A DNA stretch of 63,391 bases, filler included, from Nitrospinae bacterium RIFCSPLOWO2_12_FULL_45_22 (GCA_001803565.1; 5 parts of 5 records of this genome joined end to end with filler, not necessarily neighbours in it); one strand, 5' to 3'; shown: positions 47,016 through 53,474, counted from the whole stretch's first letter. Numbers and translations are program-made. Notes: generated by a model not told the origin, from the letters alone.

Positions 47016-47109
47016 ACCTTACCTCCAATCTAGCTCATACCAGGTTGTTACCGCTTTTTGCCCATCTCGATCGCCTTTATTCCCATCCCATACAGCAAAA
47101 GCTATAGGT
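47016..47109. repeat. 94-bp direct repeat, copy 1
   Basis: Identical to 53381-53474; contains the Rieske ribosome-binding site (GGAGGT on the minus strand). Confidence 0.97.
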
Positions 47110-47123
47110 CACCACCATATAAT

Positions 47124-47825
47124 TTAAACTGATCCCGATAATTCAAACTGATCCCGCTTGATCTCCTCAGGTTTGATACCCATTATCTTAGAATCTTGAG
47201 ATACAAATTTATCGAGTAATTTGGTTATCTCGCAATAAAAACTTGAGTTACTATTTACATTCACCTGCTCCTGAAAGGCCCTTGTCCATTGCCCCAAGTG
47301 ATCTTGGAGAAATTTCCTTTGGGCTTCCCTACAGACCTTTAAATTCCTATGGTCTCCATTCTTCAGGGCAAATGCCTCCTTAAATGTCAAGAAATGCATA
47401 AATTCCAGTTCGACGGTTATATGATCAACTCTATCTTTGTTACCATCAGCTACTTGTAAACCAAAGGCCTTATAGAAGCCAGCTATGTCGGCAAGGTTTC
47501 CAGTATTCATAAAGAGCGGCCCTCGGGCTAGGTAGCTGAGTTCATAGGGTGAACACTTAGGCTCCTGATCCTGGCCGAATAAATCAAGATATTCAGAAAT
47601 GATAGTGGGGAAAATATTGTCCCCGTATCCTTTTATCGAGGTATTCAATAATTGTATATGTCCTTTTATTATATGATAGCTGGGTAATTTTTTGGCGTTT
47701 TCAGTGAGTTGAGAGATAAATAAAGCACCCGATAGGCATGCCTTAAGCTCTTCTCCTGGGTAACCAAGAACCGTAGAAAACATTTTGTATATCTGGCTGC
47801 GGGCTAATGGTGTCTCTTCCTTCAT
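47124..47825 (-). CDS. TorD/DmsD-family molybdoenzyme chaperone (module 2)
   Basis: ARSQIY, PYE, LADIAGFYKAFG, DHITVELEFM, FLQDHLGQW. Confidence 0.9.
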   Translation of the reverse strand: MKEETPLARSQIYKMFSTVLGYPGEELKACLSGALFISQLTENAKKLPSYHIIKGHIQLLNTSIKGYGDNIFPTIISEYLDLFGQDQEPKCSPYELSYLARGPLFMNTGNLADIAGFYKAFGLQVADGNKDRVDHITVELEFMHFLTFKEAFALKNGDHRNLKVCREAQRKFLQDHLGQWTRAFQEQVNVNSNSSFYCEITKLLDKFVSQDSKIMGIKPEEIKRDQFELSGSV

Positions 47826-47828
47826 GGT

Positions 47829-49801: not shown

Positions 49802-52800
49802 TTATTTACCCCCCTTCGAGATGAAACCACCTTTTATATACTTCTTCATAGCTACATTTTCATAACCAGTCCTGAACCCAAGAACTGCTGGACGCCATTT
49901 GCCCTTGCCACTCTCGCCCCCATCCTCTGCCCTGGTGAACTTAACAAATGATTCCCTTGGGGCACCGTTGGCGCAATGGACATCAGGCTCAAACCCTTTG
50001 CCTATCATCTGCCCCATAAGGTTCTTCCTCACAAGGGTATCGGTCAACAGTGTGGGCCGTAGCCAGCTTCTCGTCGAGCTTTGGTGGCCTCCATATCTGT
50101 ACATCGATTGATAATTAGTATCGGGATTCCTGGCGAGACCGTCTTTTCTGCTCTCGTGTCCCCTCACACTGCCATGGGTAGCCTGATACATATTAAACCA
50201 AGTCCTGGTAATGCCTTTGGGCAGATTGGGATGGTATCTGGCCCGCAGGAGGCACCTTGCAACCTTGTAATCAGCCGGTTTATCCTGCCAGCCCTTAAAT
50301 GGACGATCTTTAGGGTCCGGGTCTACCCAAATGTAATCCCCATCCTCTATTCCCAACTCTCTCGCATCATCAGGATTGATCTCTACGTAACCCTCGTTCA
50401 CCCAGGGTTTACGCTTATCTCGTCTATACATATCACCAAAGGGACCAAACCAGATAGAGAGGAGGTCCAGGTCAACACCAAAGGTATGAACTGCATGTCT
50501 GAACTTAGGTGTTAAGTATATATGAGTGAACCCTTCCTTCCGCAGGGGATGTTTGGTATTTAACAGCTCGTCCGGTGTATAGACGACATTACGCACCTGG
50601 CGGGTCTCTCCAGAGAGATCATCCATGGGCCAGCCATAATCGGTTGGCGTCTTTGGTTTTATCAATGGATGTCCTTTGGCGACTATCACGTTTGGCTCGT
50701 AAAAGGTGGCATCCACTGGTTCTCTGTGAACAGGTAGGTTCTCGCCATAGTCCAAGAACTCTGGTTCTTCTCTGTAAAACTCCAGCCTCCCGGTCTTATT
50801 GTACCATGGGGCAGACTCGACGCTCTGATCGTATCCTATGAACTTCGGGTAGGTCCTGCTCATCAATAGGGCCGGTATTCCGTCTTTGGCCTTGCTGATC
50901 AAATTATCAATCTGGTAGCCTTTCATGGTATTGGAATGGTCTATTATCCTTTGGAGGTAAGGTTTTGCCTTTCCATCGGCAATAAACCTCCAGTAATCCT
51001 TAAATCTACTATCACCAGTCAATTCACCAAGTTTTTCTGATACCCCAGCATAGGTCTCACTATCGCTCTTGGTATCCCATATCCTGCTAACCCCAGTTAG
51101 AGGCATAACCATAACAAAGGGATTGGTGACACTGGCCGTCATATCGTGCACATTGTACTCGCCCCAACTGTCAGCCGGCAGCACTACATCGGCATATTCG
51201 CAGCTCGCTGACCACCACCACTCATTGACTACTACAGCCTCTATCTTCCTATTGCGCAGTAAGTTCATCACTACATCGTACATTCCTTTGGAGTTCCCCA
51301 GGATGGAGTTGGAAGCAGCAAACCAGAAGAATTTCGTAGGCGTAGGCATGTGGGTCTCACCATTAAAATATATATCATGAACCTTCAAGGGCGTATCACC
51401 ATGGGCATAGAAGTGGGCTGACTGCATCTTGAAGTAAGGTTTAACCTTTGCCGGCTTAGTAGGATCAAGGATGATGTTGAAGGGGTCTTCGGCTATGTAC
51501 TGGGGCATTCCATTGAATAATGCTGCTCGATAATTCCCTGCATAGCTGCCCACATTGCCCCCAAAAAACCCGACATTTCTTGTTAATGCTGCTACCAGAA
51601 ATATGGCCCTGTCCTTCTGATCCGCGTTGAACAGCTGATTCGGACCCATGCCCACGGTAAAGAGCACCTTTTCCTTATTGGCCGCTATCTCCCTGGCAAG
51701 GTTTATTATCGCCTCTTTCGGTGCCCAGGTAATCTTGGAGGTGGAATCAACATTCCAGGTGTCTTCAAGATGTTGTTTAATAATATCGAATATCGGCCGA
51801 ACCTTAATCTTTTCTCCATTAGTCAAAGAAATCTCAAACTCACCTTCGAGGGCGGGCTTGACCCCTTTATTTGTGAACCTTTCCCCGGTATCATCCCGGC
51901 TGACCGGAGTGGCTTTCTTAGCGTTACTATCCCATACGACAAAATCCCCCCACTCTTGTCGCATGTCACTACTAACTGCCGGCATACCAAGATTGGTTGC
52001 GAATGGAGGGGGAGGCTTTTCCTCTTTTTTTATAACTCTTGTATACTTTAGCTCCGCATTGTTATAGCCACTGATGATCTCGTGGGCCCGGAGAAGCTCT
52101 CGGGTATCCATCCGCACCAGAAACGGCAGATCGGTGAATCCCTCCACAAATTCCTCATCGTATAGTCTCTCATTAATTATCACCTGAGCCAGGCCCAAGG
52201 CAAAAGCTGGATCCGTACCGGGCCGGATGATAACTATTTCATCGGCCTTGGAAGAGGTAGAGTTATAGTCAGTGGTTATGGTAACGACCTTTGCCCCTTT
52301 GAGCCTTGCTTCACTCAGCCAATGGCCATCCGGCATCTTAGTACATATCCAGTTCATCCCCCAGCATAGGATAATGTTAGCGTATTCAGCATTGACGAGG
52401 TCAAAATCGATAGTCTGTTGTCCGGTAACCATAGGGTGTCCCGGAGGCAAATCGGTATGCCAGGAATAATTATCGAATCCTATACCTCCAATAGCCTTGT
52501 CCGGCCCGACACCACGTATATAGGAGTCCAACAGTGCCATGGAATTAGCCATTCTATATAACCCAAAGAGTTTTATTACACCCAATAGCGGCATCCCGCC
52601 CCTGAATTTCATCGCTTGTGTACCGGCACCCATCATCTTCTCTATCATCTTGGCATCGTAACCCTGCTTCTGGAGCAACTCAGCTCCTTTAGTACCGCTA
52701 TAAGTTTTAACTGTATCAATCATGCTTTGGGCAACTATAGTGTATGCCTCATCCCAGGAAACCTTCTCCCATTGGTCTTCTCCTCTCTTGAAATATTTTA

Positions 52801-53287
52801 AGGGTGGTTGGCCATTTTCATCCCTGGGAAAACCTTTTTCCACCCACTCTTTGAAGCCCTTCCTGACCGTAGGATATTTAACTCGCCTATCTCCATAAAA
52901 CCTACCCACCATAGCCACGCCTTTATTGCATATCCTAGGGTCCCACCGGGCACTGGCCTTAGTCTCATAAATATCGGTGGCATCACGGTATCGCTGGCTC
53001 GGGCCAATGCGGGTAACAATCCCGTTCTTGATATATGCCCTGAGGTAGCAGTTGTGGGTATCATTTGGAGTGCAAGCGAAAATATAGGATGAATCCGGAT
53101 TATATATATCCCTATATATCTTTTCCCATTCACGAGGTGGATAATGTTCCAGGGGATTTTTTATCTCTGGAATAGGCTGGAGTTTCTCCAATGCCAGACC
53201 TATTGCGGGTTTGCTTACCAGAGCGGCCGTTGCAGTAGCCGCTAGTGTTTCCAGGAATTGTCTTCTACTTACCCTATCGAATGACAT
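49802..53287 (-). CDS. nxrA: Periplasmic NXR/NAR-like Mo-bisPGD catalytic alpha subunit (module 2)
   Basis: SRRQFL Tat signal; CTPNDTHNC...C FS0 motif; [13 protein letters not shown]o-ligand Asp region; [21 protein letters not shown]. Confidence 0.88.
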
Positions 53288-53380
53288 CTTAACTCCCCTT
53301 TCGGAAAAACTATAAAGGTATTTTCTAATTCGCGGAGGTTCATCAAGACCCTTGATCTCTCTGTTCCTTGATAGCTAAAG

Positions 53381-53474
53381 ACCTTACCTCCAATCTAGCT
53401 CATACCAGGTTGTTACCGCTTTTTGCCCATCTCGATCGCCTTTATTCCCATCCCATACAGCAAAAGCTATAGGT
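53381..53474. repeat. 94-bp direct repeat, copy 2 (3' end of the cytochrome c-NxrC gene)
   Basis: Identical to 47016-47109; encodes PIAFAVWDGNKGDRDGQKAVTTWYELDWR*. Confidence 0.97.

Follow-up and report, generated by a model that had tools for sequence, protein, structure and literature searches.

An NXR-like enzyme module between identical 94-nucleotide gene-end repeats in a Nitrospinae Rieske/cytochrome b operon: a possible recent single-crossover insertion

Nitrite oxidoreductase (NXR)-type enzymes make or consume most of the nitrate of the biosphere, and horizontal transfer is invoked to explain how they spread across phyla. To our knowledge, the physical steps of such transfers have rarely been caught. 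Here we describe a locus in draft DNA of Nitrospinae bacterium RIFCSPLOWO2_12_FULL_45_22 (GCA_001803565.1), where a block of four genes for an NXR-like enzyme (module 2, or the cassette) stands between two identical 94-nucleotide (nt) copies of a gene end. The block lies inside an operon that encodes another, periplasmic NXR-type molybdoenzyme (module 1) and a Rieske/cytochrome b complex. The whole stretch of DNA analysed, hereafter the window, is 63,391 nt long (63 kb), artificial filler included. An earlier interpretation made from the DNA alone (the sequence-only reading) had proposed a recent single-crossover integration of a foreign catalytic module, and the present analysis followed up this proposal.

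The enzymes of the locus were compared with the NXR-ABC of Kuenenia stuttgartiensis (PDB 7b04), which both oxidises nitrite and reduces nitrate according to the available text of PMC8387239. In the case of module 1 the likeness is close: the beta subunit NxrB1 matches Kuenenia NxrB (7b04_A) with 600 bits and falls into a clade with Brocadiales and Nitrospinaceae, and the module-1-type A subunit of a relative (locus L002) matches Kuenenia NxrA (7b04_B) with 1946 bits, twice the 940 bits of the module 2 catalytic subunit NxrA2. Unlike the Kuenenia enzyme, module 1 has its gamma subunit fused to a dihaem cytochrome c. The operon described here also runs into a Rieske/cytochrome b complex, whereas the available text of PMC8387239 mentions neither ‘Rieske’ nor ‘bc1’. 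In the case of module 2 the subunit set is the same and NxrA2 is matched over its full length, but the relationship is more distant (940 bits for NxrA2, 415 bits of NxrB2 to 7b04_A), and the module falls outside that clade.

A sister clade of the periplasmic NXR comprises the NXR of Candidatus Nitrotoga and putative periplasmic nitrate reductases, as stated in the portion of PMC6050957 available to us. Gene content and order of the cassette match this clade, and NxrB2 branches sister to the Nitrospira/Nitrospina/anammox-type clade. By gene order and sister position, module 2 would thus fit the Nitrotoga/periplasmic nitrate reductase (NAR) group. The aspartate motif of the molybdenum ligand, which the same portion defines as Y-4x-D-11x-Q, is present in NxrA2 at residue 274 as YSWHTD-11x-QT. 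The motif therefore ends in QT, compared with QM in Nitrotoga and QN in N. defluvii (PMC6050957).

Mobile respiratory modules of the same family include chlorate composite transposons, a perchlorate genomic island and a conjugative element for nitrate respiration in Thermus, as described in the available parts of five reports (PMC3735179, PMC4623255, PMC4442138, PMC5748679, PMC6282519). [quoted passage not shown] Unlike them, it contains no insertion sequence, integrase or transfer gene and is bounded only by a duplicated gene end; it also lies inside an operon, with the ribosome-binding site of the next gene preserved. Its repeats are identical and equal to the region of homology, and both chromosomal neighbours are intact, as in Campbell-type integration. 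Such integration is reversible by recombination between the repeats. Unlike in the usual Campbell-type case, the cassette has no vector, replicon or selection marker, and a circle holding the four genes together with the 94 nt would be needed.

The repeat itself was confirmed by a repeat search and by direct comparison. Copies A and B (Table 1) are exact direct repeats over 94 nt at a spacing of 6365 nt. Allowing for one mismatch, the repeat reaches 97 nt (47013-47109 and 53378-53474), and the sequence beyond it on both sides is unrelated. The chance expectation for such a repeat in 63 kb is about 5e-48. With 40 nt as the minimum length and 97% as the minimum identity, the window has just two direct repeats, namely this one and a 45-nt intergenic element flanking the cytochrome b gene. 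No other copy of the 94-nt site was found in the window.

Read in gene direction (all genes of the operon are on the minus strand), the repeat consists of 1 nt, 29 codons (PIAFAVWDGNKGDRDGQKAVTTWYELDWR), the stop codon TAA and GGT. It belongs to the gene of 526 amino acids (aa) for the cytochrome c-gamma subunit fusion, here called cC1, and it is the 3' end and stop of this gene, as had been proposed. Copy B begins 14 nt past the stop of the chaperone 2 gene and ends 4 nt short of the Rieske ATG at 47011, so that its GGAGG, 10 nt upstream of this ATG, supplies the Rieske ribosome-binding site. The reading frame of copy B is closed by a TGA that arises at the junction of the 14-nt spacer and the repeat, and it has no in-frame start; therefore, copy B is an untranslated remnant. 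Both neighbours of the block were indeed left intact, with cC1 completed by copy A and the GGAGG of the Rieske gene retained. As the 94 nt show no difference, the copies have diverged by about 3% at most (upper 95% bound). Therefore, the event, or the last homogenisation, was recent on the scale of species divergence. Neither copy B (z 0.05) nor the leader of nxrA2 (z 0.64) showed an unusual fold, and neither was therefore taken for an RNA element.

Table 1. Features of the locus, in positions of the window.
Feature	Position	Strand	Description
nxrA1	57288..57596	-	last 102 codons only (309 nt), cut by contig end and artificial spacer
nxrB1	55736..56971	-	411 aa as listed; Fer4_11
chaperone 1 (NarJ/TorD-like)	54979..55722	-	Pfam Nitrate_red_del, E 3e-19
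cC1	53384..54964	-	dihaem cytochrome c fused to NxrC-type (EB_dh) gamma subunit; Pfam Cytochrom_C x2 and EB_dh
repeat copy A	53381..53474	-	working 3' end of cC1 with its stop and 3 further nt
nxrA2 leader	53288..53380	-	93 nt, GGGGAG before ATG; proximal cassette end
nxrA2	49802..53287	-	1161 aa; twin-arginine signal SRRQFL; Pfam Molybdopterin and Molydop_binding
nxrB2	48667..49830	-	Fer4_11
nxrC2	47829..48677	-	plain EB_dh gamma subunit, hydrophobic N-terminus, no cytochrome c domain; 7b04_C, E 1e-34
chaperone 2 (NarJ/TorD-like)	47124..47825	-	Pfam Nitrate_red_del, E 1e-22
spacer, chaperone 2 stop to repeat copy B	47110..47123	-	14 nt; distal cassette end
repeat copy B	47016..47109	-	untranslated cC1 3'-end remnant carrying the Rieske GGAGG
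Rieske iron-sulfur protein	46484..47011	-	Pfam Rieske; homologues
cytochrome b (N-terminal, b6-like half)	45508..46281	-	Pfam Cytochrome_B
cytochrome b C-terminal/subunit IV-like	44420..45271	-	Pfam Cytochrom_B_C; run of 26 N near 3' end
artificial spacers	20356-20455, 33773-33872, 43913-44012, 57597-57696		four identical copies

The interval between the copies holds four tightly packed, intact open reading frames (ORFs) in the order A2-B2-C2-chaperone and the leader, altogether a block of 6271 nt. The ORF listing and Pfam searches bear out that nothing else lies there: no recombinase or transposase domain was detected in the four ORFs, and no transposase on the contig that bears them (44013-57596). 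Module 2 thus encodes the catalytic subunit, the iron-sulfur beta subunit, the EB_dh haem-b gamma subunit and a chaperone of NarJ/TorD type together. [quoted passage not shown] The best non-self homologues of NxrA2 are 82, 77, 76 and 74% identical, followed at about 67% by Candidatus Magnetominusculus, Inmirania thermothiophila and Nitrospirae.

The ends of the block carry no terminal inverted repeats: inverted words between them reach 6 nt at most, which shuffles match, and direct words 9 nt, a length equalled or exceeded in 32 of 300 shuffles. The block therefore lacks transposon ends. The word ATGGTGG is present in the 14-nt spacer, and the Rieske gene opens with the same 7 nt (47005-47011). 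As 76 of 2000 shuffles match as well, it was considered too weak a basis for a model; the sharing could be accidental, or it could go back to a former junction of chaperone 2 and Rieske. No sigma-70-like site was called in the nxrA2 leader. A scan for promoters and terminators was empty at both junctions, with fewer promoter-like sites than in shuffles, and no Rfam family was found on the contig. Since the junctions have no promoter- or terminator-like site, no Rfam match and no unusual repeat fold, one long transcript across the operon is plausible.

Removal of one repeat copy together with the interval had been predicted to restore a clean order of nxrA1-B1-chaperone-cytC/NxrC-Rieske-cytochrome b. 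This is correct for the rest of the operon, but nxrA1 is present only as a 3' fragment. In its C-terminal part it can still be compared with module 2. At the protein level the two modules share 47% identity for B, 34% for the chaperone, 31% for C (using the EB_dh part of cC1) and 48% for the C-terminus of A, and at the DNA level only one stretch of 231 nt is similar (71%). A recent tandem duplication of the resident module is ruled out by these protein identities of 31-48%. A tree of B subunits with 57 rows was obtained by a quick search without a mixture model, with supports from the Shimodaira-Hasegawa-like approximate likelihood ratio test (SH-aLRT). In this tree, NxrB1 pairs with the B subunit of locus L001 (SH-aLRT 96) inside a clade of 51 rows (96) that includes Brocadiales and Nitrospinaceae. 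NxrB2 pairs with the second B subunit of locus L043 (92) outside this clade, on a long branch (0.61), which places module 2 outside the periplasmic NXR clade of Nitrospira/Nitrospina/anammox type. Module 2 is accordingly classified, by sequence, as an old paralogue of module 1 from a sister clade.

Related loci were collected in one scan of genome contigs with an alignment of 25 cC1 homologues as query. This gave 67 loci, none of them from the species of the window, which were mapped by tblastn with 11 proteins of the window; the counts of gene orders were tallied from the resulting table. The order (A)-B-chaperone-cC occurs in about 36 of the 67 loci and the order cC-A-B-chaperone in about 23. 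Rieske/cytochrome b genes are nearby in six (L006, L026, L041, L049, L052 and L053). In L049 (3740-13284) and L052 (10001-19510), both from Planctomycetota/Brocadiales, the genes cC-A-B-chaperone-Rieske-cytochrome b-cytochrome b C run in one direction; the linkage of an NXR-type enzyme to a Rieske/cytochrome b complex therefore recurs across phyla.

A module-2-type enzyme was found in one locus of the 67, L043 (1-12981; A 60%, B 59%). There, a module-2-type A-B-chaperone-C set with a cupredoxin begins 2.1 kb past a module-1 operon, separated from it by a hypothetical gene and an alginate-export-type porin; there are no flanking repeats. The two enzyme types, side by side in this locus, may be functionally linked.

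The closest genome found is split over L001 and L006, where a single gene spans the end of the former and the start of the latter, which overlap with 68 of 70 nt identical. Joined, they read B1 (80%)-chaperone-cC1 (64-67%)-ferredoxin of 99 aa-Rieske (64%)-cytochrome b (75%)-cytochrome b C, without the cassette. In addition, P0002 (79%, full length, 520 aa) ranks second among the matches of cC1, as does P0242 (83%, 175 aa) among those of the Rieske protein, and for each a single contig of 2414 nt is recorded. It is likely that both are on the same contig, where their genes would take 2091 of the 2414 nt and leave over 323 nt; they would therefore be adjacent, with no room for 6.3 kb. Thus, a cassette-free operon in relatives, for which the sequence-only reading had suggested to look, was seen in L001 and L006 and can be deduced for P0002 and P0242, these relatives being 64-83% identical in protein. 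Among the clusters of near-identical proteins, P0001 has 13 members, P0121 has 10 (one contig of 16,627 nt) and P0241 has 5.

None of 69 cC gene ends in 65 of the related loci recurred as a second copy, the matches being of 16-20 nt only. Over all 67 loci (1.03 Mb), direct repeats with a length of 50 nt or more and an identity of 97% or more number only two. In L061, a direct repeat of 241 nt (97%; 42-282 and 12516-12756) brackets 12.5 kb including a cC-A-B-chaperone cluster. Its copies lie in ORFs without a Pfam match, and the second copy is cut by the end of the locus. As a duplicated gene of no Pfam family, it was rejected as a comparable bracket.

The claim of a foreign source found no support when composition was compared inside and outside the cassette. 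The GC fraction is 0.464 in the cassette, 0.457 in the flanks on the same contig and 0.444 on the other contigs. The per-codon likelihood of synonymous choice is -1.09 to -1.14 for the four cassette genes, within the range of all 42 ORFs of the window (-1.08 to -1.28). In tetranucleotides the cassette stands at a distance of 0.0146 from the remainder of the window, against 0.0120 +/- 0.0017, and 3 of 47 overlapping control windows of equal size are as far or farther. Since GC, codon use and tetranucleotides all match the host, the genes either came from a source of host-like composition or have long been resident in the lineage. A search of plasmids gave no close DNA match to the cassette. The best protein match (54%) is on plasmid 2 of Natronococcus occultus, with the order A-B-TorD. 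On this archaeal megaplasmid (L068; NC_019976.1, 114978-120470) the NxrA2 homologue has no annotated feature and is followed by B and TorD genes. The match indicates that this type of enzyme can be plasmid-borne and is uninformative on the event at the cassette.

We tentatively favour a recent and possibly reversible single-crossover insertion of the cassette from a compositionally similar source, and put its chances a little short of even. A circular DNA that bore the four-gene block, together with a copy of the target gene's last 94 nt, would have recombined once with the chromosome inside these 94 nt, in a Campbell-type event that is most simply RecA-dependent, and would thereby have duplicated them. 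Homology of 94 nt is long enough for RecA-dependent recombination at low frequency. The proximal copy would then complete cC1, and the distal copy would still give the Rieske gene its Shine-Dalgarno sequence, so that the whole stretch would stay one operon. The source may be the gene pool of the same species or another place in the same genome, and recombination between the repeats could delete or amplify the block. The event would be recent because the repeat copies are still identical. The anatomy of the locus is what one reciprocal crossover with a circle bearing the 94 nt leaves: identical direct repeats equal to the target segment bracket the insert, and the site is unoccupied in relatives. 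We infer the crossover itself from this anatomy. Altogether, the earlier proposal is partly supported, in that the insertion scar and a recent date are supported, whereas a foreign origin is unsupported.

Several points weigh against the insertion. The first formation of a circle bearing the 94 nt needs an illegitimate event that is unexplained. Clean loss through the repeats would likewise yield empty relatives, which leaves the polarity of the change unproven. The structure is known from one assembled contig of 13.6 kb in a fragmented draft with internal runs of N. Composition gives no sign of import, fitting a source in the same species but equally a long residence. In another lineage, L043 has a module-2-type enzyme beside a module-1 operon without any repeat. 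No relative at species level was found, the best locus having 64-80% protein identity, and the adjacency of P0002 and P0242 is deduced from the fact that both contigs have 2414 nt.

With regard to the assembly, the window consists of five contigs joined through four identical artificial spacers of 100 nt (N44-TTAATTAATTAA-N44). A six-frame stop flanked by N is a usual means of joining draft contigs. Gene neighbourhood across the spacers is therefore meaningless, and the DDE transposase at 59215-60225, which is on another contig, cannot be counted as a neighbour of the cassette. The contig with the repeats and the cassette (13,584 nt) contains two runs of N, one of 26 nt in the cytochrome b C-terminal gene and one of 20 nt at the 5' end of nxrB1. 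Graph-based assembly must draw all four junction sequences from reads, namely those that join the repeat with the cC1 body, chaperone 2, the nxrA2 leader and the Rieske gene. For this reason the cassette joined to the repeat is real DNA, however the repeat was threaded. The possible arrangements that remain are integration as assembled, an empty site with a circle or tandem array, and a mixture of these.

The chromosome could accordingly read cC1-Rieske, with the cassette a circle or tandem array joined through the 94 nt by a threading error or through a mixed population. We consider this unlikely. It would suit a fragmented draft with spacers and runs of N, and relatives do have the empty site; the repeat is also shorter than common maximum k-mer and read lengths, so the path was perhaps chosen by pairing heuristics. 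However, reads of 100-150 nt can span 94 nt, and many assemblers would resolve such a repeat. A 6.4-kb circle of four enzyme genes without a replication gene is, moreover, an implausible replicon. It would be an excision product, and therefore the integrated form must exist or have existed recently. An old and fixed arrangement, in which the distal 94 nt were kept identical by gene conversion or were copied recently from the cC1 end as a short patch, seems quite improbable to us. The host-like composition of the cassette would agree with it, as would L043 with both enzyme types side by side and L049 and L052 with an enzyme module between cC and Rieske (cC-A-B-D-Rieske-cytochrome b). But the A, B and D genes of the latter two are of module-1 type, with B in the 51-row clade, and the two nearest relatives have no cassette. 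There is also no obvious reason for homogenising a sharp-bordered remnant of 94 nt whose only function is a ribosome-binding site.

An integrase-borne genomic island was rejected, since none of the four ORFs has a recombinase domain. A composite transposon was rejected as well: the contig has no transposase, terminal inverted repeats are lacking, and the duplication is 94 nt rather than short. Site-specific integration of a non-autonomous element, with the 94 nt as an att-like site and the recombinase encoded elsewhere, has in our view a very small chance. Integrative islands typically target the 3' ends of genes and restore them, and the anatomy here is the same. Nevertheless, no recombinase is encoded in or beside the cassette, its ends show neither inverted repeats nor structured arms (see the 6-nt word and the z values above), and the window has no further copy of the site.

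In the host operon, the nxrA1 fragment best matches module-1-type A subunits in L034 (81%) and L065 (70%). The listed start of nxrB1 at 56971 is probably too late. An ATG with AAGGAGG at 57031 precedes the run of 20 N (56999-57018), and the conserved VYNWHLGRK follows this run in another frame; the true start probably lies upstream of the run. The cC1 protein matches the PDB sequences 6h5l_B over residues 36-251 and 7b04_C over residues 301-523, and its architecture is common to more than 3000 homologues. Between nxrA1 and nxrB1, two spacer segments (57073-57124 and 57244-57280) are 83% and 81% identical to 7135-7186 and 7395-7431, two segments of another contig with a separation of about 260 nt, pointing to a dispersed repeat element in intergenic DNA.

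The spacers on both sides of the cytochrome b gene, towards the Rieske gene (46374-46460) and towards the cytochrome b C-terminal gene (45289-45463), are taken up by long inverted repeats made of TGCAAAATTAGCAATT. The motif occurs five times, only in these spacers, against 0.08 expected, and it possibly forms hairpins in the mRNA or represents a small repeat element. The exact 45-nt direct repeat that brackets cytochrome b lies at 45419-45463 and 46413-46457. On a different contig from that of the cassette, the above DDE transposase gene, which is IS4-like, sits between a pair consisting of a 165-aa ORF and a UPF0175 gene (57985-58801) and a remnant at 60575-60668. This remnant is a composite of about 94 nt of the pair, with 89% and 87% identity, as if part of the pair had been duplicated in connection with the insertion sequence.

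NXR-type enzymes are linked to a Rieske/cytochrome b complex here and in L006, L049 and L052. A non-exhaustive literature search, supplements excluded, on NXR with Rieske/cytochrome b clusters and on NXR-like enzymes with Schekmanbacteria found no description of the arrangement at this locus. The direction of the reaction, nitrite oxidation or quinol-fed nitrate reduction through Rieske/cytochrome b, cannot be read from the genes, because the solved Kuenenia enzyme works both ways (PMC8387239, available text). On a neighbouring contig (38957-43815), three multihaem cytochromes with paired CXXCH motifs and MtrC/MtrF-like domains accompany an NHL-repeat beta-propeller protein, which hints at extracellular or periplasmic electron transfer in the organism. 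Another contig has a radical-SAM gene of the CofH/MqnC family adjoining genes of the UbiD and UbiA families. Taking the Rieske/cytochrome b genes, the CofH/MqnC-UbiD-UbiA genes and the multihaem cytochromes together, quinol-driven periplasmic nitrate reduction through the cytochrome c domains would be a reasonable guess, no more.

The term plug-in respiratory cassette, used in the sequence-only reading, is one we use conditionally. Its boldest form, a recombinase-free enzyme cartridge that moves in and out of the NXR-Rieske/cytochrome b operon, and between strains, through the 94-nt gene-end site, appears doubtful to us and rather far from likely. If it were true, a population could switch on, lose or amplify a second nitrite/nitrate enzyme on the same electron-transfer partners, in effect exchanging catalytic heads as modules on one common respiratory chassis.

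Should read data fail to bear out the structure, the locus would be a warning about draft genomes with repeats slightly shorter than the k-mers or reads. Should they bear it out, it would show a fresh insertion scar, in which a complete catalytic module was set precisely between an electron-carrier gene and a Rieske/cytochrome b complex with neither broken, and a simple route for loss or amplification by recombination between the repeats. The operon couples two different NXR/NAR-type enzymes to one Rieske/cytochrome b complex in an uncultured lineage, and thereby offers a hint, open to testing, of reverse electron flow or of quinol-linked nitrate reduction in the periplasm.

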